Sequence record: ON184125
Source: Escherichia phage PC3
Length of the DNA: 64,000 bases
Direction: 5' to 3' (one strand)
Part shown: in pieces, positions 3-26,505 of the stretch
Position numbering within the stretch: the first letter of the stretch is position 1
Layout of the letters: the number at the start of each line of letters is the position of its first letter
Translations under genes and position numbers: made by a program
Notes under the pieces: generated by a model
Database searches by the model: none
Seen by the model: only the letters and a program-made list of their open reading frames with translations
What the model was told of the DNA's origin: nothing

Positions 3-2558
3 GCTCTCAATACTCCACCAACAATCGTGGACGTGTATGCTGATGGGAAACGTCTTTCGGAATCCAAATATTCACTAGATGGGAATGTAATCACTTTCAG
101 TCCTTCTTTGCCACCCAACACAGAACTCCAGGTGATTGAATATACTCCTATTCAATTGGGTAATGGCGGTGGTTCTAGTTCTTCTACGATTACTTGGGTC
201 TATAATGGGGGTTCAGCGATTGGCGGTGAAACCGAAATCACGTTGGACGTCGTTGTTGACGATGTTCCGGCCATTGATATAAACGGAAGTCGCCAGTATA
301 AAAATCTGGGATTCACATTCGATCCATTAACCAGTAAAATCACTCTTGCGCAAGAACTGGAACCAGAGGATGAAGTTGTTGTAATTATCAATGGAACACC
401 AAACATCTATAATCAAATTGATTATACTTTGCGGGAAGTGGCTCGTGTAACCAATGTTAAAGATACAGAGGTCGTTTATTTTAGTGTTGGTGCTGCGTTA
501 AGTGGGTATAAAGTTATTTATGACAAGGAGACGCAAAGGGCTTATCCCTTGCCTGCTGATATTGCCCCAGGTACTACTGCTATCAGTCTTAGTCCTTCCG
601 CTGTACTTGTGCATTCAGCGGGTTCTGTAGATCTCGGGGAATTGGCCGTATCTCGTGAGGAATACGTTACATTGTCTGGGTCATTTGATACCGGTGTAAC
701 AGTTAATACCAAGAATGAATTAGTTGTCTTTACAGATGGGAAGTATCGCTGGGATGGGGAATTGCCTAAAGAGGTTTCTGCTGGCTCAACCCCAGGGAGT
801 GCTGGTGGTACTGGTGCAGGAAAATGGTTAAGTGTTGGTGATGTAAGTTTAAGAAGTGACCTGGCTGATGATGACGGAGTTGATTTAGTTAACGGAGCAG
901 TCAAGGATAAAGATTTTGAGCTTTACAAAAGGCAATCAATTGCAAAAAATAGATTTAATTTCGCTTTTGGGAATAAATACTCAAGAAGCTTTAACAATAA
1001 TTTGCGCTTACAGTTGCAAACTTATGTGGAGAATGTATTTAACTTTGCACCAAAAGCGGTGTCACTTCCAAGTGGGCGGGTGGTATGTATCTACACAGTG
1101 AAGGATGGTGCTAATATTGACCCAGGACAGGACGGCACACCTATGCACATTGATTACCTAATATCTGATGATAACGGTGTGAACTGGACCACTGGAACTG
1201 TTGTTAACAAAGGGCCAGGATATGCCACTTCTGAAACGGTACTATTCCTAAATAATCTTGATGGGTATTTGTATTGTTTCTTTACATCAATGAAGGGGAT
1301 TACGGGGTGGGGGCATGCACAACAAGGAACTAACCCTGACACAACATCAACTATTGAATATGTCATATCAAAGGATGGTGGCAATACATGGAGCACCCCT
1401 GTTGATATTACGCCATTGGTTAAACCATCTGGTGCTTACTTCTCATCAATTGCACCTACACAAGTCGGGTACATAAATGGCAAGCCTGCAATTCCTTATT
1501 ATTATTTAACTCAACTATCTACCGGAATAGTTGAGGGGTATATCACAGTTGATGATAGCGGTAACTACACCTACGGTGAAGATGTCAGGAAAGACACGGA
1601 TACCGATACTCTCGGTACATCTGGCGGTGAAATTGGTTTCGGAAATTTTTATGACGGAACACCGTTTGCCATTGAGCGCGCAGCAGATACGACCACTAAG
1701 CCTTACAAAATAGCCATTCAAAAGCTATTGATGCAAGATTCTAGTGGAAAGTGGGTTGTAAAAGGACAGTTCCCTACCACTAACTGTATGGCGTCGTTCT
1801 TACGCGTTGGCCCTGATTATGGTTTTGATAAGGATTATCTCTTTGTTATCGCACCTGTTGGTCAATCAGGTAATTACGAAGGACGTGCAAACATTAGAGT
1901 ATTCGACTGCTCTGACGATTTTAGCAATCCTATTGATCGCGGCATGATAACAGACACAAATGCTTTGGAGGCAGGTTACAGTTCAACCGTGCTTCTATCT
2001 TCTGGTTCATTTATGAGTATGTGGAACGGTAGACAGTGGACGATCAGCAATTCAATTTACACTATTAACAGGCTTGCGGGTAACGTGATTATCCCTGTCC
2101 CGTTTTGCGGCACTATTAAAATTGTTGACATTAGAAAGACTTTTGCACCCGATTTAAGAATCAACGAGCGAGTGATTGGTCTTGCTGACGGCAAAGAATA
2201 TACATGGAACGGTTCATCATTTGTGCTTGGTATTTCGTCACCAACGAAAACGCTAACAACTGAAACAACTACATTAGATGCCAACTCTTGCGACGTATTT
2301 TATCTCGACGCTGGAAGTAATGGATCAGTGATAACGTCAATCACTGGTGGATATATCGGACAAAGGATATCAATACTTCCGTTATCCGGCAACACTGTTG
2401 TGACGCTTTCAAAACAAGCGTCCGGCGTCTCTGTCACCGACAGAATTATGTATAATACAGAAACCGGGAAGACAAAATACAAGACAAACGGGGAGATTGT
2501 AGAGTTAATAAAAACGAACTACGGATGGTATTTAAACAAATCAGCAAATGCATCATAA
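3..2558 (+). CDS. Tailspike protein 1 (5' partial; BNR/Asp-box sialidase-like domain)
   Basis: Open frame runs off the window start. Carries the ~110-aa module shared with the next tailspikes (VTNVKD...SAGSVDLGELAVSREEYV...NTKNELVVFTDGKYRWDG) and two Asp-box motifs (SDDNGVNW, SKDGGNTW). Confidence 0.75.
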   Translation, partial: ALNTPPTIVDVYADGKRLSESKYSLDGNVITFSPSLPPNTELQVIEYTPIQLGNGGGSSSSTITWVYNGGSAIGGETEITLDVVVDDVPAIDINGSRQYKNLGFTFDPLTSKITLAQELEPEDEVVVIINGTPNIYNQIDYTLREVARVTNVKDTEVVYFSVGAALSGYKVIYDKETQRAYPLPADIAPGTTAISLSPSAVLVHSAGSVDLGELAVSREEYVTLSGSFDTGVTVNTKNELVVFTDGKYRWDGELPKEVSAGSTPGSAGGTGAGKWLSVGDVSLRSDLADDDGVDLVNGAVKDKDFELYKRQSIAKNRFNFAFGNKYSRSFNNNLRLQLQTYVENVFNFAPKAVSLPSGRVVCIYTVKDGANIDPGQDGTPMHIDYLISDDNGVNWTTGTVVNKGPGYATSETVLFLNNLDGYLYCFFTSMKGITGWGHAQQGTNPDTTSTIEYVISKDGGNTWSTPVDITPLVKPSGAYFSSIAPTQVGYINGKPAIPYYYLTQLSTGIVEGYITVDDSGNYTYGEDVRKDTDTDTLGTSGGEIGFGNFYDGTPFAIERAADTTTKPYKIAIQKLLMQDSSGKWVVKGQFPTTNCMASFLRVGPDYGFDKDYLFVIAPVGQSGNYEGRANIRVFDCSDDFSNPIDRGMITDTNALEAGYSSTVLLSSGSFMSMWNGRQWTISNSIYTINRLAGNVIIPVPFCGTIKIVDIRKTFAPDLRINERVIGLADGKEYTWNGSSFVLGISSPTKTLTTETTTLDANSCDVFYLDAGSNGSVITSITGGYIGQRISILPLSGNTVVTLSKQASGVSVTDRIMYNTETGKTKYKTNGEIVELIKTNYGWYLNKSANAS

Positions 2559-2564
2559 CAATAA

Positions 2565-2589
2565 ACCCCGCTTCGGCGGGGTTCTTATT
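2565..2589 (+). terminator. Rho-independent terminator after TSP1
   Basis: ccccgc-ttcg-gcgggg stem-loop followed by TTCTTATT. Confidence 0.6.
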
Positions 2590-2620
2590 ATAACTTTGTT
2601 CATAAATTTATTAGTTCAGA

Positions 2621-2631
2621 CTAAATACCCC
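2621..2631 (+). promoter_or_regulatory. Putative late promoter (CTAAATAcccc)
   Basis: Motif ~27 nt upstream of the TSP2 ATG; recurs before late genes. Confidence 0.45.
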
Positions 2632-2657
2632 ATATTGGTCATCTTTGGGGTATTATC

Positions 2658-5207
2658 ATGATTTCTCAATTCAATCAACCACGCGGCTCCACTTCCATAG
2701 AAGTTAACAAACAATCTATCGCTCGAAATTTCGGTGTCAAAGAAGACGAAGTCATTTATTTCACTGCTGGTATTGATCTCAGTGGATTTAAAGTAATTTA
2801 TGATGAGTCTACCCAACGGGCTTATTCTCTTCCTTCAGGTATTGTTTCAGGAACGACTGCGATAAGTCTGAACGAACAAGCCATCCTCACTCATTCCGCT
2901 GGTTCTGTTGACCTTGGGGAATTAGCAGTAAGCCGCGAAGAGTATGTAACCTTACCTGGTTCATTTGATACCGGTGTAACTGTTAATACTAAGAATGAAT
3001 TAGTTGTATTTACTGATGGTAAGTACCGTTGGGATGGGGCATTACCTAAAGTAGTTCCTGCTGGCACAGACCCTACTCTTCCAGGGAGTGGTTATATTAG
3101 GTGCTCCAATCAGTTCACAAGCACACAGACCCGTGAGGCGTTGCGCCGTAGCTATGCAACAGCAGGCTATAATCTAGTAGATGGTAGCTTTGAGTCGGGC
3201 GGTACACTAGTGAACGCCAACGATGTGCTACTACAAGAACGCACTGGTAAGGCGTTCTCTGGTCCTGCTGGTATAGTTGTCGCTGGGACTAACCCGATAA
3301 CTGGTGGTTACAAAGTTGCTGGAATATACAAACATTTCTCCTCTTTTTACGAGATGATTGCGTCCACGGAGGCAGAGTTACCTGTAGATTCAGTATGCTC
3401 AACCGGCGGTACAATGTGGGTCAGGTCTGCTTCCCAGCCAGCATTAACATCATTTACCCCTATAAGTGCGATTTGCGGGGATGATTTCGGCATAACCGCT
3501 GGAGAGTCTGTCTCTGGCCAGACTATATCTGAATTCCTAACTGTAGCTTACACATCAGGGTGCCGTGGGTACTTCAAGTCAGTCGGTGAAGTTACTGTAA
3601 CCAGCAATATAGAACTATTGTCGATTGATAAAAACTTAGTTGTTGATTGGACTGGTATAAAGTTGTTCGGGGCATCTGATGGGGTGGAAATGCACTTGTC
3701 ATCAACCGAGATTCGGTCTTCACTTCTAGCTGATATGGTAAGTGGCTCCACAGTTGTGCAGGTGGATGGGGCTGTAGAAGGAGATTTGATTTATATAGAG
3801 GACAACAAGACGTATGAGACTCAGTGGAATTTTAACTCAAGGGAGTTGTTTATTGCAGAGCGTGAATCTGGTTCTAGTATGAAAGTTGATAGGCCAGCGC
3901 TATTCAATCATTTAGTAGCAAACAACGTTAAGGTCAACAGGTACAAACCGGTAAGGTTGATTTTCAATAACTTCAAGATGGAGCACTTCAACAATCGTGA
4001 TAACTCATCTTTTGTTAATATAGGCTCCGCATCATTCGGGGTTTCATCTTCATGGTTTCGTGGTTTTTATATGCCAGTCTTTTCTGGTGACGTGGAAACC
4101 AGTGGTGGTTCTTCGTACTTATTGATAGCCTGCTATATGCCAAGAATTGGCAATGTAGTTGCTAATAGGTGTCAGTATCCTATCAGCCCTGCGGCGGGTA
4201 CTTACGATACAGTTATTGATAGCATCACAGCATCATTCTGTCGACATGCTGCCTCCCCAACAACATGGTTCAACAAGTTCGAGGTTAAAAAGTGCTTCGG
4301 TTATAATAACTTCGCCACGATGGACTCGCACGCTGGTTTTGATGCTAAATGGCGTAACGTATTTGCCACCGAAGAATATGATATGCCAAATATAAGATGT
4401 CTTGGTGGTGAGCTGACAGATATCAATATAGTTGCCAGTTTGGGCACAACCCCAGCAGAAGACCCTCAGATAGGTATCGTCACATTTACTGGTGATGCTT
4501 CTATGCACCGAGACTGGATCGCTACTAATGTTGCTCTAAATTATAAAAACCGGACGGATGATATTTTCGCATTACCGTGGCAGGCTGATAATGTCTATTA
4601 CGAAAATATTAACTGCATGGGTGGTTTTATTAGATGTGTAAACACAGCATCAAAAATAAAAACAGTAACATTAACAAACATCAATGCCTGCGTGAGACTG
4701 GTAGGTGACTGCGGAAATCTGAAAACATTAATAAACAACAGGGTAATTCCAGATGATAGTCTCTACATGTATGAGAATGCACCGAACGGGAAGAAAACTA
4801 CATTATGGGAAGTTAACTGTGGGCATACTTCGGGGGCTTCTGCTAACAAAGTTTTAAAGATTTTTGATAACTATGGAACATTAGAATCGCAAAACCTACT
4901 AGTAAAAATTAAGTCGTGTTCTTCATATAATAACGGAGGATCCGTTGCTTATATTGAGAAGACGTACCTAGTAAATCATAAGCTCAGCGCGAATTCTTCC
5001 GCGTCGATATCAGGACCTGTGAATGAAACTCGCATAAACGGCGTGACAGATTCGGACATATCACTCAATGTAACATTAACTAATTCTGCGGGATACACAC
5101 AGTCACCAGATATAAACGCGCATTTCTTTGAGCTAACTATAGCTACAACCACAAGTAGACCGAATAACGTATTCGGTATAACTGTAGAGATATCAAAACT
5201 CAATTGA
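2658..5207 (+). CDS. Tailspike protein 2
   Basis: 849-aa ORF; the conserved module lies at residues ~15-130 and is ~90% identical at DNA level to the TSP1 copy; CTAAATA motif 27 nt upstream. Confidence 0.7.
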   Translation: MISQFNQPRGSTSIEVNKQSIARNFGVKEDEVIYFTAGIDLSGFKVIYDESTQRAYSLPSGIVSGTTAISLNEQAILTHSAGSVDLGELAVSREEYVTLPGSFDTGVTVNTKNELVVFTDGKYRWDGALPKVVPAGTDPTLPGSGYIRCSNQFTSTQTREALRRSYATAGYNLVDGSFESGGTLVNANDVLLQERTGKAFSGPAGIVVAGTNPITGGYKVAGIYKHFSSFYEMIASTEAELPVDSVCSTGGTMWVRSASQPALTSFTPISAICGDDFGITAGESVSGQTISEFLTVAYTSGCRGYFKSVGEVTVTSNIELLSIDKNLVVDWTGIKLFGASDGVEMHLSSTEIRSSLLADMVSGSTVVQVDGAVEGDLIYIEDNKTYETQWNFNSRELFIAERESGSSMKVDRPALFNHLVANNVKVNRYKPVRLIFNNFKMEHFNNRDNSSFVNIGSASFGVSSSWFRGFYMPVFSGDVETSGGSSYLLIACYMPRIGNVVANRCQYPISPAAGTYDTVIDSITASFCRHAASPTTWFNKFEVKKCFGYNNFATMDSHAGFDAKWRNVFATEEYDMPNIRCLGGELTDINIVASLGTTPAEDPQIGIVTFTGDASMHRDWIATNVALNYKNRTDDIFALPWQADNVYYENINCMGGFIRCVNTASKIKTVTLTNINACVRLVGDCGNLKTLINNRVIPDDSLYMYENAPNGKKTTLWEVNCGHTSGASANKVLKIFDNYGTLESQNLLVKIKSCSSYNNGGSVAYIEKTYLVNHKLSANSSASISGPVNETRINGVTDSDISLNVTLTNSAGYTQSPDINAHFFELTIATTTSRPNNVFGITVEISKLN

Positions 5208-18752: not shown

Positions 18753-19445
18753 ATGAGTGCTATGTCAGAACGCCTATTATCCACCCTCAGTGCTATCCAA
18801 GCGCGGGATGAGGTCGCTCAAGAAGTCATGGAGAAGACCTCGCCTATGGCCGGAAAAGATTACGATCCGGATACAGGCGAGTGGTTGGGTGAAAAGCCTG
18901 CGGGGTATGAGCCTGTGGTGTTTCCTCCTTCATTGGACCCAGAAGAGCTGAAGCCCAAGGAGTCTAAGGTTCCAGACTTCGAAGATACTGATGCCACCAC
19001 CGACTACAAACGCATCCGTGACACGACTTATGCCATGCAGGAAGCCACGATGTTCATGATGGGACAGGCAGCCAAACTTGCGACGACGACTGAAGCACCC
19101 CGTGCCTTCACAGTCTTCAAAGAGTTGGGTGAACTCATGCGCGGCCTGAACAAAGACCTGATGGAGAACCAGAAAACTATCAAGGCGGTCACGGGCGACA
19201 GAGAGCCACCTCCTGGAGATGAAACAACCGTCGAGGTCACCACGTCCCCTGATGGCACAACCACGGTCAACGTCGGTAAACAGGCCAGGTCTTCCCGTGA
19301 TCTACTGAAGACCATCGAAGACGCCCGTAAACGTGCTGAAGAACGTGCTGCAGCGAAAGCTGCGTCCAAAGGACCTGATCCCGAAGAAGATGTAATCGAC
19401 GTTCAGGCAGAGCCGAATGGAGAAGGTGAAGACGATGGCGTATAA
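18753..19445 (+). CDS. gp16: Terminase small subunit gp16
   Basis: Lies immediately upstream of and overlapping gp17; central region resembles T4 gp16; acidic C-terminus. Confidence 0.6.
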   Translation: MSAMSERLLSTLSAIQARDEVAQEVMEKTSPMAGKDYDPDTGEWLGEKPAGYEPVVFPPSLDPEELKPKESKVPDFEDTDATTDYKRIRDTTYAMQEATMFMMGQAAKLATTTEAPRAFTVFKELGELMRGLNKDLMENQKTIKAVTGDREPPPGDETTVEVTTSPDGTTTVNVGKQARSSRDLLKTIEDARKRAEERAAAKAASKGPDPEEDVIDVQAEPNGEGEDDGV

Positions 19446-21642
19446 AAAAGAGATAGATTGGGCACCAGAGAAAACTGGTTTTAAAACACCAGACGTCAGA
19501 CTGCGTATGGACCAAACGTTCATGCGCAAGCCGTCTGTGCGCGCTCCTCGTGTGGAGTTGATGCTAACCGACGAACAAGAATCGGAGTTCGTCGAGTGCG
19601 CGATGGACGCCCATTACTTCGCCGCCAACTACTACAAGATCACGACCATCGATAAAGGCTTCATCCTCTTTGACATGCACGATTACCAGAAGCAGTTGTT
19701 CCATGACTTCCAGGACTATCGATTCAATGCGGTCGTCCAGGCTCGTCAGTCTGGGAAATGTGTAAAAGGTGACACGCTTGTCACAGTTTACGATACTCTC
19801 AGCCAAGAGCAGTTGCTCCTGACCATAGGGGAGCTTCACAGCCGCTTCGAGAACGTCAACCACGCTGTGCCGCTGAATACCATTGGCAACCACGACAAGT
19901 TCGTGGACAGCCGCTTCGGCAAGCGTTACTTTGTGCAATCCGATAGTGGCTGGGTTCCGGTTATCGCAGCGCATAAGACGAAGAAATATGCGGAATTCGT
20001 TATTGTGACTGTTACTGGGCGTCGAATTAACGTGGCCGACGAACATATATTCTTCACTCCGGAAATGAAGGAGATATTTGCCAAAGACCTGAATGCTGGG
20101 TCATACATCATGACGTCAGAAGGTCCAGAAGAAATCCGCGAGGTTTGGCAGACTGGTGAGACGCATCACATGTATGACCTACAGGTGAAATCTAGTGATC
20201 AGCGCTACTACACCAACGGCTTCCTCAGCCACAACACGACAGTCGTGGCAGCGTTCCTGCTCTGGTATGCGATGTTCCACTCCGACAAAGAGATCGCAGT
20301 ACTGGCGAACAAAGAGAAGCAGGCGATTGAAATCCTAGATCGTATTCGCAAAGCATATCAAGATTTGCCATTCTTCCTCCAACAGGGTTGTGAGAAGTTC
20401 GGTTCCACGCTGATCGAGTTCGAAAACGGATCAAAGATCTACGCCTATGCGACATCTTCCGACTCCATCCGTGGTCGATCCGTATCGCTCCTGTATGTGG
20501 ACGAAGTGGCGTTCATTGAAAACGACTTTGAATTCTGGGAGTCTACATTCCCGGCGATTGCATCTGCAGAGACTTCACGTTGTATTCTGACCAGTACGCC
20601 GAAAGGTCAGCGCGGGTTGTTCTACGACATCGTCACCAAGGCGAACCCAGAACATCCACAATACAACGACTTCAAACTCACAGAGGTCCCATGGTATCGT
20701 GTTCCAACGTACACCAAAGATCCAGACTGGGAATCCAAACAAAGGGCGAAGCTGGGTGATGCACGTTTCGATCAAGAATTTGGCATTAAGTTCCGTGGTT
20801 CTGTGGGATCACTGATACCTGCCAAGTGTCTGGACAAGATGACCTCGAAGCTGTATCAGGAGCCGAACGAGTTCACCAAGATTTATCACGACTACGATCC
20901 TAAGCGCATCTATATGGGTATCGCAGATACAGGCAAGGGTGTCGAAGGGGATTATTCTGTGCTGACCATTATCGACATCACAGACTATCCTCACAAGATC
21001 GCAGCCAAGTATCGAAATAACACGATACCTCCAATGATGTACGCGTACACAATCGCCGATATGGGTGAGAAGTATGGAACATGCCCGATGCTAGTCGAGA
21101 CCAACAACGACGTGGGTGGTCAGGTAATCACAATTCTATATCAGGAAATTGAATATCCCGAGATCATCTTCACCACAACAGATACCAAGGGTACAGGCAA
21201 GAGAATCGGTGGTCGCCGCCCTGAGCCTGGTATCAATACCAACAAGAAGGTGCGCACAAACGGCTGTGCCAACCTGAAAGCCTTGATTGAACGTGAAATG
21301 CTGGTGATAGATGACCAGGACACGATAGATGAACTCAGTACATTCGTATGGACTGGAACAAGGTATGAAGCCGATGATGGTTGTCATGATGACTGTGTAA
21401 TGCCCCTCGTGTTGTATGCATGGGCGGTGAAACAAGAATGGTTTAGTGATCTCACCAATTCAAATATCTCTGTGGACATGAGAGGACGGTTGTCTGCGAT
21501 GGAAGAATCTCAGATGCTACCATTTGGGGGTATGATGTCGACGCCAGATCCTCACTCTGTGGAGAACATCTCAGGGTTCGGTGGAATTCAGGTTTATGAT
21601 GAACGCTCTGGTATGTCTATGGAAGAATGGCTGAGACGGTGA
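19435..21642 (+). CDS. gp17: Terminase large subunit gp17, intein-containing
   Basis: Split Walker A (ARQSGK...TTVVAAFLLWYAMFH), Walker B LLYVDEVAF, strong colinearity with T4 gp17 once residues 115-273 are removed. Confidence 0.9.
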   Translation: MAYKKEIDWAPEKTGFKTPDVRLRMDQTFMRKPSVRAPRVELMLTDEQESEFVECAMDAHYFAANYYKITTIDKGFILFDMHDYQKQLFHDFQDYRFNAVVQARQSGKCVKGDTLVTVYDTLSQEQLLLTIGELHSRFENVNHAVPLNTIGNHDKFVDSRFGKRYFVQSDSGWVPVIAAHKTKKYAEFVIVTVTGRRINVADEHIFFTPEMKEIFAKDLNAGSYIMTSEGPEEIREVWQTGETHHMYDLQVKSSDQRYYTNGFLSHNTTVVAAFLLWYAMFHSDKEIAVLANKEKQAIEILDRIRKAYQDLPFFLQQGCEKFGSTLIEFENGSKIYAYATSSDSIRGRSVSLLYVDEVAFIENDFEFWESTFPAIASAETSRCILTSTPKGQRGLFYDIVTKANPEHPQYNDFKLTEVPWYRVPTYTKDPDWESKQRAKLGDARFDQEFGIKFRGSVGSLIPAKCLDKMTSKLYQEPNEFTKIYHDYDPKRIYMGIADTGKGVEGDYSVLTIIDITDYPHKIAAKYRNNTIPPMMYAYTIADMGEKYGTCPMLVETNNDVGGQVITILYQEIEYPEIIFTTTDTKGTGKRIGGRRPEPGINTNKKVRTNGCANLKALIEREMLVIDDQDTIDELSTFVWTGTRYEADDGCHDDCVMPLVLYAWAVKQEWFSDLTNSNISVDMRGRLSAMEESQMLPFGGMMSTPDPHSVENISGFGGIQVYDERSGMSMEEWLRR
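19759..20235 (+). mobile_element. Mini-intein (159 aa) inserted in the terminase Walker A P-loop
   Basis: Begins with Cys after SGK (CVKGDTLVTV), ends ...MYDLQVKSSDQRYYTNGFLSHN followed by Thr; excision recreates SGKT. Confidence 0.8.
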
Positions 21643-21645
21643 TCA

Positions 21646-21652
21646 CTAAATA
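21646..21652 (+). promoter_or_regulatory. Putative late promoter (CTAAATA)
   Basis: Upstream of gp18. Confidence 0.45.
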
Positions 21653-21694
21653 TCTTTCAAATTGAGCGAAACTCTACAGAGAAGGAATAAGATT

Positions 21695-23590
21695 ATGGCA
21701 ACTAAAAGCTTCAGCGTTGCGCCGTCCGTACAGTGGACTGAGCGTGATGCCACGCTTCAGACGTCTCCATCCGTTGTTGTTCAGGGTGCGACTGTCGGCA
21801 AATTCCAATGGGGTGAAGCAGAACTCCCTGTGTTGGTCACTGGTGGCGAAACTGGTCTGGTGAAGAAATTCTTCAAGCCAAACGATGCAACTGCCACCGA
21901 CTTCTTAGTGATTGCTGACTTCCTGTCTTACAGCTCTGTTGCATGGGTGACCCGTGTGGTCGGTCCGGCGGCACGCAACGCTGTAACCAAAGGTCAGACT
22001 GCAATCCTTATCCGCAACAAACTAGACTTCGAAACTGCGTCCCCGTCTGCGTCTATTACCTGGACAGGCCGCTATGCTGGCTCCCTGGGTAACGACATTG
22101 CTGTGAACATCTGTGATGCTGCGCTGTTCCCGACCTGGGAATTCCGTAACAACTTCGCATATGCTCCACAGGATGGCGAGTACCATATCGCCATCGTTGA
22201 CAAAGTAGGTCGCATCACCGACTCTTCTGGCGCTGTTAGTCAGGTTGATCGTATCTCTGTATCCGGTACTGCCACCGCTGCTGGTTCCATCTCTGTTGCT
22301 GGTGAAGCCGTGGCGTACACTGACGCTGACACCCCGGCGACTCTGGCGACAAAGATCGGAACCGCGCTGACGTCTCTGTCTGAAGTGTATTCTTCTGTTG
22401 TCGTGAAGTCCAACACCGTCACCGTCACTCACAAAGCAATCGGTCCTCAGGCTGCGACTGCGATTGTTCCAGACGCGAATGGCCTGACTGCTACCGCTGC
22501 CGTCACCACTGTTGGTGCTTCCGGTACGATCATCGAGAAGTATGAACTGGTGCAGACCGCTCAGGGTTCTAAGAAATCTGATGGATCCAATGCGTACTTC
22601 AAAGACGTGATCAACGGCACCTCAAATTGGGTGTACACCTTCGCCACTACCCTGGCTGCTGGTGTCATTGAACTCGAAGGTGGTGTAGACGATTACACTG
22701 GGAACCGTGTTGCGGCTATCCAGGCACTGAACAACGCCGAAGCGTATGATGCCAAGCCAGTGTTCGGTTTCTGTGAAGAACTGATTGAGCAGCAGGCACT
22801 GATCGACCTGTCCACCGAGCGTAAAGACACAGTGTCCTTCGTGTCTCCTCTTCGCGATACGGTCGTCGGAAACCGTGGCCGTGAGATGGATGATGTTGTG
22901 GCCTGGCGTGAAAGCCTTGTTCGCGACTCCTCCTACTTCTTCATGGATGACAACTGGGCGTATGTGTACGACAAGTACAACGACAAAATGCGTTGGATTC
23001 CGGCTTGTGGTGGCACCGCAGGTGTTTGGGCGCGAAGCATTGAAATCGCGGGTATCTACAAGTCTCCAGCGTTCCACAACCGTGGTAAATACAACAACTA
23101 TAATCGAATGGCGTGGTCTGCGTCTTCTGATGAGCGTGCTGTGCTGTATCGCAACCAGATCAACAGCATCGTCACCTTCTCCAACGAAGGCATCGTGTTG
23201 TACGGCGACAAGACTGGCCTGACCCGCCCATCTGCGTTCGACCGCATCAACGTTCGTGGTCTGTTCATTATGGCAGAACAGAACATCGCAGCCATCGCCA
23301 AATACTACCTTGGTGAGAACAATGATGCATTCACTCGTGGGTTGTTCAGCAACGCTGTCCGCCCATATATCCGTCAGTTGGCCAACATGGGCGCGATCTA
23401 TGACGGGATGGTGAAGTGTGACGAGGACAACAACACCGCTGATGTTATTGCAGCCAACACCATGGTCGCGGGCATTTGGCTGAAACCAGAGTACAGCATA
23501 AATTGGGTGTATCTTGATTTTGCTTCCGTGCGTCCAGACATGGAATTCAGTGAGATCGAATCCGGTGGTGGTATCGTAGCTGCGTCCTAA
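21695..23590 (+). CDS. gp18: Tail sheath protein gp18
   Basis: GKFQWGEA motif as in T4 gp18 (GKFQWGPA); size 631 aa; CTAAATA and gaagga SD upstream. Confidence 0.85.
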   Translation: MATKSFSVAPSVQWTERDATLQTSPSVVVQGATVGKFQWGEAELPVLVTGGETGLVKKFFKPNDATATDFLVIADFLSYSSVAWVTRVVGPAARNAVTKGQTAILIRNKLDFETASPSASITWTGRYAGSLGNDIAVNICDAALFPTWEFRNNFAYAPQDGEYHIAIVDKVGRITDSSGAVSQVDRISVSGTATAAGSISVAGEAVAYTDADTPATLATKIGTALTSLSEVYSSVVVKSNTVTVTHKAIGPQAATAIVPDANGLTATAAVTTVGASGTIIEKYELVQTAQGSKKSDGSNAYFKDVINGTSNWVYTFATTLAAGVIELEGGVDDYTGNRVAAIQALNNAEAYDAKPVFGFCEELIEQQALIDLSTERKDTVSFVSPLRDTVVGNRGREMDDVVAWRESLVRDSSYFFMDDNWAYVYDKYNDKMRWIPACGGTAGVWARSIEIAGIYKSPAFHNRGKYNNYNRMAWSASSDERAVLYRNQINSIVTFSNEGIVLYGDKTGLTRPSAFDRINVRGLFIMAEQNIAAIAKYYLGENNDAFTRGLFSNAVRPYIRQLANMGAIYDGMVKCDEDNNTADVIAANTMVAGIWLKPEYSINWVYLDFASVRPDMEFSEIESGGGIVAAS

Positions 23591-23594
23591 AAAT

Positions 23595-23625
23595 AAACCC
23601 CGCTTCGGCGGGGTTTTAAATTTTT
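23595..23625 (+). terminator. Rho-independent terminator after gp18
   Basis: ccccgc-ttcg-gcgggg plus TTTTAAATTTTT. Confidence 0.6.
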
Positions 23626-23646
23626 CCAGATTATTTTATTGAATTA

Positions 23647-23675
23647 CTTTACTTCTTCAATAACTCACGTATAAT
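23647..23675 (+). promoter_or_regulatory. Sigma70-like promoter (CTTTAC-17-TATAAT)
   Basis: Upstream of the 23724 gene; -10 context TATAATTCTA recurs at 31852 and 38245. Confidence 0.4.
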
Positions 23676-23723
23676 TCTAAACATAAGCAGTACGACACCA
23701 ACTTGAAACGAAGGAACTATATC

Positions 23724-24080
23724 ATGACCAAGACCGAAATTAACGCTATCCTGAAAGAAATCGGCCTCTGTAACCTGAAACGCCGCATCAATCCTTACCA
23801 GCCTGCAAAACCAGTACGCGACAGCCAGGGAAAGATGATAAAAGGGATCTACTGTGCAGATGTTGGTCCAATGACGGTGACCAGTCCACACATTGACAGA
23901 TTTAACGCTATTGTTGGGGAGTTTTGTGGTAAGGTTCTGGGTGAACTAGCTAATGATTTATGCTCCCCAGATACCAAAGTTGTAGCTTTCGGGAGCCACC
24001 TCGTCACCTTCCACCTCACCAGCTTCCGTGCCCACGGTGATTATTATGTGTATTATGCTCAGGTTAGCATTCGCAAATAG
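23724..24080 (+). CDS. Hypothetical protein (118 aa)
   Basis: ORF with aaggaa SD, preceded by a sigma70-like promoter (CTTTAC-17-TATAAT). Confidence 0.4.
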   Translation: MTKTEINAILKEIGLCNLKRRINPYQPAKPVRDSQGKMIKGIYCADVGPMTVTSPHIDRFNAIVGEFCGKVLGELANDLCSPDTKVVAFGSHLVTFHLTSFRAHGDYYVYYAQVSIRK

Positions 24081-24086
24081 TAGTTT

Positions 24087-24114
24087 ACCCCGCTGAGGCG
24101 GGGTTTTAGTTTTC
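24087..24114. terminator. Terminator hairpin between convergent genes
   Basis: accccgc-tgag-gcggggt plus TTTTAGTTTT. Confidence 0.5.
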
Positions 24115-25890
24115 CAGTTCATACCGGATAAGACCACACCCCCAGATACGCCCCAACCCGGCTTCTATCGCCAGCATATCCTCTGTTTTACCTTCTACAT
24201 TGTATCCAAGTTTAAGGAATTTCTCTTTCCTGAAATTGAATTTGTGTATACGTGAGCCATAGTCTGGAGTCACATATTTGTAATCAGGGGGAAGGATTTC
24301 CTTTTCAACAAATCCGTTATTCAGGTAAACATTTTTCAGACGACTGACAACACAACGATCACCAAAAGAATATACTGTCTCACCCCGATGTCGAGCGATA
24401 TAATATTTCAGTAAGCGTGAGAATGCGCCATGACAATTGTTAGAAGCAAATCTCACCAATTCAATACCATGCGTCCGTTTGGTAAACAACATCACCGCCT
24501 GGATATTCCCAGTTTTGTCTACAAGGTGTATATAATCTGTCGCCACCACACCACCTTGTATATGGAATCGGTCGAGAAAGTCCTTGGACGTCCTATAGGA
24601 GCCTTCTAAAATGATATGTTGGCGAGCGTATGACAATGGTTTCCCTATCCCCAATTTTGCTTTAAGGAGTGATTTAACCACTTCCCGTTTGTCACGCCAC
24701 TCATCTTCCCAGATATGGATTAATTGAATACCCTGGGCTTCACAGTACATGGTCTTTTCAAGATGGTAGTCTTTGTATCGATGTTTCTCTGTATGCCAGT
24801 ACAAGCCGTTAAATTCTATTGCCAACTTATGTTCTGGGCAGTATATGTCTATCTGGCGTGTGGTCACCCTTCCGTCGAACATTTTACCTCTGAGGACGGA
24901 GAAATTACCAGATTCGCATATAACACCCAATGAATCCAGGTATGAACATATTTCTATTTCTGGCTGCGTTTGGCTTTGGCTGCTGGGGTACGTGAAAGAG
25001 TTCCTATATTCTTCAGAAGAGAAATAGTGAGGTACGCCGTATTTTTCTTTTGAAATGATCCTGGTATTGACCTGGCTTCTATCCCATATAGCCTTTACCT
25101 TCAACGGATAATCAACCCCATATTTTAAGACGCATGTTTTCTTTCTCTTTTCTATAATGGAATTGAGGAACATTGGATGATCCACACCATAGATCTTCCT
25201 CCAAGTCTCAATCACCCTTTCCCTCACTTCTGGCATTTTCATGACGTGTGATACGCCATAGCGTTCCATGACGGAAGCAGCCACTCTGTCCTTTATAACA
25301 TCAGACTTCATAGGGTGGTCGACCCCATATTTCTTAAGGACAGTTTCCCGCGACTTTTGTTTTACTTCTTCCAGTTGGAATGTGTTGGCTACGCCATATT
25401 TCTCTGATATGGCGTTTTCTAGGTTGACCCGTTCTGAGCCTCCCGCCTTCATTGATTTTCGTTGGCATTCTTCGGAACAAAACTTTTTGTATCTGGGTGG
25501 TTGGGCTTCCATTTCTAAGCCAACGTCAGCACCGCAAGTGACACACTGCGACTTCGGAATATCGTACAGCCAAGCAGTTATCGCTTGTGGTTCTTCTAAT
25601 AGGTCGTTGTGTGACACCACGTATCCAACAACATCAACCCCAGTATGGGCCGTGAGTAGGGGATGAGAGATAAGTTTGTAGTTCAACGAACCATCTTTCT
25701 TCCTGAGTTTACTATCAACCCAAGAGCGGCATTCGGTTTCGGTCGTCGGGATGTTATCCAACAAACCCGGATTGCGTTTCATCGTTCCCAGCATGAATGA
25801 TTTACATTCGTCACTACAATACAACGCAGCCTTCCTGGTTGGGGTGAACGGTTTGTGGCAGCATGAACAATTTTTATCGGGGAATGGCAT
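24106..25890 (-). CDS. Homing-endonuclease-like protein 1: two zinc ribbons, KYGV repeats, PD-(D/E)XK (Vsr/DUF559-like) domain
   Basis: CxxC pairs, repeated KYGVxHP units, IDIYCPEHKLAIEFNGLYWH...IHIWEDEW nuclease-like motif; paralog of 31887..33875; inserted between gp18 and gp19 on the opposite strand. Confidence 0.55.
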   Translation of the reverse strand: MPFPDKNCSCCHKPFTPTRKAALYCSDECKSFMLGTMKRNPGLLDNIPTTETECRSWVDSKLRKKDGSLNYKLISHPLLTAHTGVDVVGYVVSHNDLLEEPQAITAWLYDIPKSQCVTCGADVGLEMEAQPPRYKKFCSEECQRKSMKAGGSERVNLENAISEKYGVANTFQLEEVKQKSRETVLKKYGVDHPMKSDVIKDRVAASVMERYGVSHVMKMPEVRERVIETWRKIYGVDHPMFLNSIIEKRKKTCVLKYGVDYPLKVKAIWDRSQVNTRIISKEKYGVPHYFSSEEYRNSFTYPSSQSQTQPEIEICSYLDSLGVICESGNFSVLRGKMFDGRVTTRQIDIYCPEHKLAIEFNGLYWHTEKHRYKDYHLEKTMYCEAQGIQLIHIWEDEWRDKREVVKSLLKAKLGIGKPLSYARQHIILEGSYRTSKDFLDRFHIQGGVVATDYIHLVDKTGNIQAVMLFTKRTHGIELVRFASNNCHGAFSRLLKYYIARHRGETVYSFGDRCVVSRLKNVYLNNGFVEKEILPPDYKYVTPDYGSRIHKFNFRKEKFLKLGYNVEGKTEDMLAIEAGLGRIWGCGLIRYELEN

Positions 25891-25938
25891 AATAAATATC
25901 CTCACTTTGGAGTATTTTAACCCCCATTTATTTCAAAA

Positions 25939-25945
25939 CTAAATA
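25939..25945 (+). promoter_or_regulatory. Putative late promoter (CTAAATA)
   Basis: 27 nt upstream of gp19. Confidence 0.45.
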
Positions 25946-25971
25946 TTTACACTATTCAGAGGAGAACGACC

Positions 25972-26505
25972 ATGGCTACAGTTAATGAATTCAGAGCAGC
26001 TATGTCACGCGGGGGCGGCGTTCAGCGCCAACACCGTTGGCGTGTGACTGTTAACTTCCCTTCCTTCGTGGCTGGAAGCGATACCATCCGTGATGTTTCG
26101 CTGTTGGCGGTGACAACAAATACCCCAACAGGCCAGCTCGGGGAAATACTCGTCCCATGGGGTGGTCGTGAACTTCCATTCCCAGGTGACCGCCGCTTCG
26201 AAGCGCTGCCTGTGACGTTCATCAACGTCGTGGACAACGCCCCGTACAACGCATTCGAAGTCTGGCAGCAGTATATCAACGGCAGCAACAACAACCGTGC
26301 GTCTGCTAACCCAGATGATTATTTCCGTGATGTAATCATGGAACTACTGGATGCGAATGACAACGTCACCAAGACCTGGACCCTTCAGGGTGCCTGGCCT
26401 CAGAACCTCGGTCAGCTGGAACTGGACATGTCTGCAATGGACTCTTATACTCAGTTCACTGTTGACCTGCGTTACTTCCAGGCCATTTCAGACAAGTCTC
26501 TCTAA
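25972..26505 (+). CDS. gp19: Tail tube protein gp19
   Basis: C-terminal LDMSAMDSYTQFTVDLRYFQ resembles T4 gp19 (LDWDSNNEIQTFEVTLALDYWE); CTAAATA and gaggag SD upstream. Confidence 0.8.
   Translation: MATVNEFRAAMSRGGGVQRQHRWRVTVNFPSFVAGSDTIRDVSLLAVTTNTPTGQLGEILVPWGGRELPFPGDRRFEALPVTFINVVDNAPYNAFEVWQQYINGSNNNRASANPDDYFRDVIMELLDANDNVTKTWTLQGAWPQNLGQLELDMSAMDSYTQFTVDLRYFQAISDKSL

Follow-up and report, generated by a model that had tools for sequence, protein, structure and literature searches.

A probable class 1 mini-intein in the P-loop of the large terminase subunit of Escherichia phage PC3

What is a 159-residue insert doing between the Lys and the Thr of the ATPase P-loop of a phage packaging motor? 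The question is raised by the gene for the large terminase subunit (terL) of Escherichia phage PC3 (record ON184125), of which we analyzed a stretch of 64,000 nucleotides (nt), hereafter the window. An earlier note, made from the sequence alone, had suggested a mini-intein that splits the Walker A motif. For comparisons we use the name Escherichia phage PH4 (ON184126.1; Ackermannviridae, Aglimvirinae), in which the gene is 100% identical and lies at the same coordinates. Using hidden Markov models (HMMs), alignments, AlphaFold2 and Foldseek, we conclude with high confidence that positions 19759–20235 of the plus strand encode a class 1 mini-intein of 159 amino acids (aa), devoid of an endonuclease domain, which splits the ATPase site of a precursor and is predicted to be spliced from it.

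Anatomy, fold and conservation of the insert

The insert comprises 477 nt, or 159 in-frame codons, and splits ARQSGK|TTVVAAF between the Lys and the Thr; across its junctions the precursor reads FNAVVQARQSGK, then C...SHN, then TTVVAAFLLWYA. The coordinates, the insertion site, Cys1, the VADEH motif, the YDLQV...SHN end and Thr+1 are all exactly as the earlier note had listed them. The plus-strand insert opens with the block A nucleophile, Cys1 (TGT, 19759–19761), which is invariant in 29 sequences with identities down to 32%. Block B is found as VADEH (20032–20046), in which Ala93-Asp94-x-His96 is invariant and Ala takes the place of the usual Thr of TxxH, and block F as MYDLQV (20170–20187), with invariant Met138 and Asp140, only around 40 residues away. 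Block G, NGFLSHN (20215–20235), ends in the invariant Leu156-Ser157-His158-Asn159; MYDLQV...NGFLSHN thus spans 20170–20235, and the last codons are CAC AAC (His-Asn, the Asn AAC at 20233–20235). K47-F48, G64, T74, Y150 and T152 are invariant as well. Immediately downstream, Thr+1 (ACG, 20236–20238) is present in every intein-bearing TerL homologue examined.

Such an anatomy within a P-loop is far beyond chance. Cys1, the block B His, the block F Asp, the terminal His-Asn, Thr+1, a HINT fold and a precise in-frame insertion together identify the insert as a class 1 intein, while a class 3 intein was ruled out by the N-terminal Cys1 and the lack of a WCT triplet (block F, MYDLQV, is without Cys and block G ends in SHN). 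Pfam searches detected no endonuclease family in the insert, even at E≤1, and it is therefore a mini-intein, as the earlier note had suggested. Homologues with an insert lacking Cys1 or the terminal Asn, which that note had named as evidence against an intein, were not encountered among Vi01, Mooltan, CBA120, SFP10, Ag3, RC-2014, Menlow, 3M, VAP7 and metagenomic sequences.

The Hint-domain HMM search of the insert proposed in the earlier note indeed retrieved intein and Hint models. TIGR01445 (intein_Nterm) matched above its cut-off (25.1 versus 24.5 bits), and TIGR01443 (intein_Cterm) matched weakly (11.9 versus a cut-off of 15.6) in the right place, the last 21 residues. Sequence searches of the Protein Data Bank (PDB) retrieved inteins only, with CatC first (residues 60–158, E ~0.009), followed by the CDC21 intein, VidaL and gp41-1. 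Homologous proteins were sought with the full-length precursor as query; the intein alone, limited by the word index of the search, gave only two proteins. An AlphaFold2 model of the intein was built on 29 homologues. The model (pLDDT, the predicted local distance difference test, 94.6; pTM, the predicted template modelling score, 0.87) consists of one compact HINT domain, interrupted at residues 23–43 by a small insert of two helices. In Foldseek searches against the PDB, the top matches were all inteins or bacterial intein-like (BIL) domains, with E-values ranging from 1e-10 for VidaL to ~1e-5 and template modelling scores of up to 0.82.

An intein-free allele of terL reads ...ARQSGKTTVVAAF... 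and has exactly the length of the spliced product. The comparison with intein-free alleles proposed in the earlier note gave exact empty sites in three cases: Vibrio phage D510, which reads CRQSGK|TTVVAAFLLWY; the metagenomic P0015 (contig L015), the 576-aa product of which is 83.7% identical to spliced PH4 TerL over 575 residues with 0 gaps, and which lies in a gp15-gp16-gp17-gp18 gene order syntenic with PH4; and P0016 (L016/L017, contigs of ~118 kb). PH4 TerL spliced in silico likewise has 576 aa, and its alignment with T4 gp17 (3EZK; E=3.6e-72) is colinear through Walker A (SRQLGKTTVVA/ARQSGKTTVVA). A single-piece tblastn match in Vi01, tried as a further intein-free copy, proved to be an artefact of alignment, the Vi01 terL product having 736 aa with the intein.

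The ratio of nonsynonymous to synonymous substitution rates (dN/dS) of the intein was 0.041 (Ag3 versus RC-2014) and 0.073 (PH4 versus CBA120), compared with ~0.04 in the exteins; ratios were taken where dS was unsaturated, and many genus-level pairs were left out because dS was saturated. Base composition bore no sign of recent foreign origin (GC content 49.9% in the intein, 48.7% in the exteins and 48.2% in the window). An HMM derived from the 29-sequence intein alignment matched only the terL open reading frame (ORF) among the 380 six-frame ORFs of the window, revealing no other intein there.

Several points weigh against this identification. On the isolated insert, the Pfam model Intein_splicing (PF14890) gave E=2.1e-8 and 34.6 bits, just under its gathering threshold of 35.8. 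Block B has ADxH rather than the TxxH of most inteins; because this Ala is invariant throughout the family, the change is probably harmless. Only a minority of inteins use Thr+1 as the nucleophile, and the Cys1/Thr+1 pairing occurs in ~12% of inteins according to a review. The low dN/dS fits an intein that must splice or the phage dies and any additional function alike, and no experiments on the PH4 intein or its counterparts in other Ackermannviridae TerL proteins were found in the searchable literature.

The host gene lies in an ORF of 741 aa (19417–21642, plus strand), flanked by a gp16-like small terminase gene (terS) on one side and gp18, the tail sheath gene, on the other. Pfam assigned Terminase_6N (PF03237, 63.5 bits) and Terminase_6C (PF17289, 29 bits), and the protein shows the layout of the Terminase_6 family, with an ATPase bearing Walker A and B at the N-terminus and an RNaseH-like nuclease at the C-terminus. 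While the PH4 GenBank entry starts at 19417, the start codon in all annotated relatives is the homologue of ATG 19435 (MAYKK...), which is preceded by a Shine-Dalgarno sequence, GAAGGTGA, and overlaps the terS stop. On this basis we place the precursor gene, of T4 gp17 type by its Pfam domains and its match to 3EZK, at 19435–21642 (plus strand), and the intein more likely occupies residues 109–267 of a 735-aa precursor. The earlier note had given residues 115–273, a numbering that is right from the GenBank start and not from the start used in relatives. The N-extein (19435–19758, plus strand, 108 aa) ends in ...RFNAVVQARQSGK, with which Walker A begins, and the C-extein (20236–21639, plus strand, 468 aa) contains Walker B (LLYVDE), the C-motif TSTP and the nuclease domain of RNaseH-like type. 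As the C-extein opens with Thr+1, excision would restore SGKTT.

Splicing and competing explanations

Whereas anatomy, fold, conservation, purifying selection and the exact empty site are shown by the analysis, we infer that splicing occurs. In the predicted pathway, a precursor of ~735 aa would be translated with its ATPase site split. After an N-S acyl shift at Cys1, helped by His96 of block B, the hydroxyl of Thr+1 would attack the thioester to form a branched ester; cyclization of Asn159, helped by His158, would then release the intein, and an O-N shift would leave a native Lys-Thr bond in a TerL of 576 aa whose SGKTT P-loop is intact. The ligated junction peptide would read QSGK-TTVVAAFLLWYAMFHSDK, as opposed to QSGKCVK in the precursor. 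Because a functional P-loop is not possible in the precursor, splicing should be obligatory for DNA packaging, an argument that rests on gp17 geometry and on the work of Kelley et al. (2016), who argued likewise for mycobacteriophage TerL inteins.

Among enterobacterial Ackermannviridae the element is fixed. In 249 of 252 related phage records, coverage of the gene was at least 80%, which implies that the intein is included, and less than 80% in the other 3; the partial record of Klebsiella phage GKM-TASP92 spans just 85% of the intein. Lacking an endonuclease domain, it most likely persists because an essential motor would be destroyed if the intein were lost imprecisely.

Persistence could also reflect a use. 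The intein might be competent for splicing yet conditional, gating the packaging ATPase post-translationally through the Cys1 thiol and redox state or through temperature, and would then be more than a stranded selfish element; this would be an addition to obligatory splicing rather than a strict alternative to it. Fixation in ~250 enterobacterial Ackermannviridae records despite the lack of an endonuclease is in keeping with this idea, as is purifying selection that acts over the whole intein and equals that on the exteins in strength, and P-loop inteins have been argued to be possibly kept as sensors (Novikova, 2016; Kelley et al., 2016; PMC5050341). However, strong purifying selection is expected anyway, since an intein that failed to splice out of an essential P-loop would be lethal; intein-free relatives with near-identical flanks presumably package DNA normally; and neither a second Cys nor another sensor motif was identified in the intein. 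We regard conditional splicing as unlikely. A more elaborate proposal, that the intein is kept in all enterobacterial Ackermannviridae, with cassette-like exchange of its alleles among genera, as a conditional post-translational switch that times the packaging ATPase, strikes us as somewhat less probable again, including its lesser variant in which spread and replacement are driven in trans by free-standing homing endonucleases that move through the terS–terL junction, ~320 bp upstream.

Alternatively, a degenerate HINT domain that no longer splices could stay in the mature terminase, tolerated or reused. Such a domain could be read into the fact that splicing is inferred, into the slightly sub-threshold Pfam score and into the change from Thr to Ala in block B. 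Against it, Cys1, the block B His, the block F Asp and the His-Asn pair are invariant in all 29 sequences, Thr+1 is retained throughout the TerL homologues, and 159 aa separating Lys from Thr in Walker A are incompatible with the P-loop geometry of T4 gp17. Moreover, in the Delftia phage PhiW-14 and the Agrobacterium phage Atu_ph07 TerL is split at this same site, where a complete protein is possible by trans-splicing only. A dead domain is very improbable.

A pretoxin-HINT or BIL domain, cleaving instead of splicing, is less probable still. The name comes from the orthologue of Dickeya phage RC-2014, recorded as 'pretoxin HINT domain protein', and PF07591 does match weakly, but its 16.3 bits fall far short of the 27.7 cut-off and below the intein models, a downstream toxin domain is absent, and a domain internal to a conserved enzyme with an exact empty site and a +1 nucleophile is an intein by definition. 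That the insert is a group I or II intron, removed from the RNA and not from the protein, can practically be dismissed: introns in terL do exist in other phages, such as Campylobacter phage IBB_35, but this insert is in frame, free of stops, HINT-folded and under codon-level purifying selection, and an Rfam scan of 19000–22000 detected no RNA family at E≤1.

Allele exchange and the terS–terL junction

Within terL, informative sites and segment identities delimit a recombinant patch at about 19716–20158 (plus strand), made up of ~43 nt from the end of the N-extein and ~400 nt from the start of the intein. This Kuttervirus-like tract, reaching from ~43 nt before Cys1 to ~80 nt before the intein end, is 93–96% identical at the nucleotide level to the Kuttervirus phages CBA120 and GG32 and 73–76% identical to Agtrevirus Ag3, whereas the flanking terL is 88–97% identical to and resembles that of Ag3. 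The PH4 C-extein is 90.4% identical to Ag3 and 76.1% to CBA120, whereas the whole intein is 92.2% identical to CBA120 and 78.2% to Ag3. Within Kuttervirus, CBA120 and SFP10 have exteins 96–97% identical and inteins 72.5% identical, with a dS of 0.21 in the exteins and saturation in the intein. The sister phage AV101 has the same patch as PH4, ISTP3 is another mosaic, and the family holds at least five intein allele types. This mismatch between extein and intein identities indicates that alleles of an endonuclease-free intein have been exchanged across genera by recombination; most likely, ordinary homologous recombination among co-infecting phages shuffles them. Exchange of an intein without an endonuclease between phage genera is mildly interesting for intein population biology and leaves the overall picture unchanged.

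The 5' end of terL has a history of its own. Its first 66 nt (19435–19500, plus strand; junction at 19420–19450) are 93.9% identical to RC-2014 and 71% to AV101, and form a putative deletion scar of a lost free-standing endonuclease gene. In RC-2014 (L008, 809–1687) and Salmonella phage GG32 (L022, 806–1687), a NUMOD3/HNH-like free-standing endonuclease gene lies between terS and terL and is followed by a recoded 5' end. PH4 lacks this gene, and the end of its terS, ATGGCGTAT, is joined directly to AAAAAAGAGATAGATTGG, an arrangement that would match a deletion between the ATGGCNTAT repeats that flank the endonuclease gene. We considered this endonuclease as the driver of intein exchange and found no support for it: GG32 has it and CBA120 does not, yet both have a type A intein; RC-2014 has it together with another intein type; and AV101 has the patch of PH4 without the 5' scar. 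As endonuclease and intein type do not covary, we do not claim the endonuclease as driver.

Elsewhere in the window, an insertion of ~2.4 kb (23591–25971) lies between gp18, which ends at 23590, and the tail tube gene gp19 (25972–26505). It contains a 118-aa ORF and a 562-aa ORF on the minus strand (24106–25794) with DUF7487 and weak DUF559/Vsr-like nuclease matches, named 'homing endonuclease' in GenBank. In the metagenomic contig L016, the gp19 of which is 76% identical to that of PH4, gp18 and gp19 are adjacent.

Related terminase inserts and known inteins

The intein is already known from sister phages, in which it has been described in print as well as annotated. In Salmonella phage Marshall, the large terminase 'is interrupted by an intein' (2013, PMC3853055), and in Klebsiella phage Magnus (2019, PMC6763660) its counterpart 'harbors an intein element'. 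The record of Salmonella phage Mooltan (MH688040) names the product 'intein-containing terminase large subunit precursor', and its mat_peptide 'intein' corresponds exactly to the homologous 477 nt; Maynard and Marshall have a mat_peptide 'intein' as well, and the NCBI nr database has entries named 'intein [Salmonella phage Maynard/Marshall]'. In the PH4 GenBank record, terL (PH4_000013), terS and all adjoining structural genes are named 'hypothetical protein', and PH4_000013 can now be annotated as an intein-containing terminase large subunit precursor. Phylogenies and clustering based on terL should drop residues 109–267 first. According to a 2024 paper (PMC11162368), inteins had yet to be reported from coliphages, a statement to which PH4, CBA120, AV101 and other E. 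coli phages carrying the intein add a minor correction.

Our searches also revealed a variety of inserts in related TerL genes. Naturally split TerL inteins at SGK|T were found in PhiW-14 (L013, ~1700–2503) and Atu_ph07 (L014, coding sequences 1983–2354 and 2366–4174). In both, an N-intein of ~43–46 aa (with Cys1 in PhiW-14 and Ser1 in Atu_ph07) runs into a stop, and a separate ORF supplies the C-intein, ...SHN|TT; the split near residue ~45 corresponds to the atypical N-proximal position of AceL/GOS-TerL. PhiW-14 has no annotation for its N-terminal TerL fragment. Campylobacter phage CP21 (L012, 1694–2905) has a related intein three residues earlier (PRQ|C...SHN|SSKST) and a second Cys-initiated insert after FRGFS, beyond which the ORF breaks up, an arrangement that fits the terL intein plus intron described for IBB_35 (PMC3322345). 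The metagenomic P0050 (838 aa) has two TerL inteins, one at the GK|T site of the P-loop and the other just before the Walker B LLYLDE (IRGKS|C...SHN|C). In five Vibrio Ackermannviridae-like TerL ORFs (P0053, P0059, P0065 from Vibrio phage VP-1, P0078, and P0085 from Vibrio phage K469), a GIY-YIG domain (PF01541) replaces the nuclease domain after FDQE(F/Y)xC, and this switch suggests an endonuclease-bearing intron or insertion in terL. Some of these ORFs have the P-loop intein, and P0078 and P0085 are without it.

How, then, does the PH4 intein compare with characterized systems? Its closest counterparts are the TerL inteins of ViI-like phages (Ackermannviridae), to which it is orthologous, sharing the gene, the SGK|T site, the length of 159 aa, the boundaries and the catalytic residues. 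The PH4 allele has 76% protein identity to the Marshall/Mooltan/Vi01 type and belongs to a second class shared with CBA120 and GG32 (95–96%). More generally, terminases have been described as common intein targets, and the PH4 intein is one more case of the documented preference of inteins for ATPase P-loops. Several mycobacteriophage TerL inteins have been found to splice, and Lys|Thr is the 'classic' P-loop insertion point (Kelley et al., 2016; PMC5050341). Like the PH4 intein, mycobacteriophage TerL1-a separates the invariant Lys of Walker A from the nucleophilic Thr, and its splicing was argued to be needed for ATPase activity and pentamer assembly; its host protein, however, is of the Terminase_1 family, as opposed to Terminase_6 in PH4, and we saw no significant sequence relationship. 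TerL1-b and TerL1-c, the inteins tested for endonuclease activity in the same study, have an active endonuclease domain, whereas the PH4 intein has none.

Among inteins of known structure, CatC of the AceL-TerL/GOS-TerL consensus intein Cat (PDB 6DSL), whose host protein is named terminase large subunit, was the best PDB match by sequence, with ~25% identity to the PH4 intein over the region aligned by Foldseek, and VidaL (6VGV) was the best structural match (E=1e-10). AceL-TerL and GOS-TerL are naturally split and atypical, whereas the PH4 intein, being in one piece, would splice in cis; it pairs Cys1 with Thr+1, in contrast to the Ser1 and Cys+1 reported for GOS-TerL. T4 gp17 (3EZK, 3CPE) is intein-free, and ~490 of its residues align with spliced PH4 TerL, the alignment including the SGKTT region, the Walker B LLYVDE, TSTP, CHDD and the nuclease domain.

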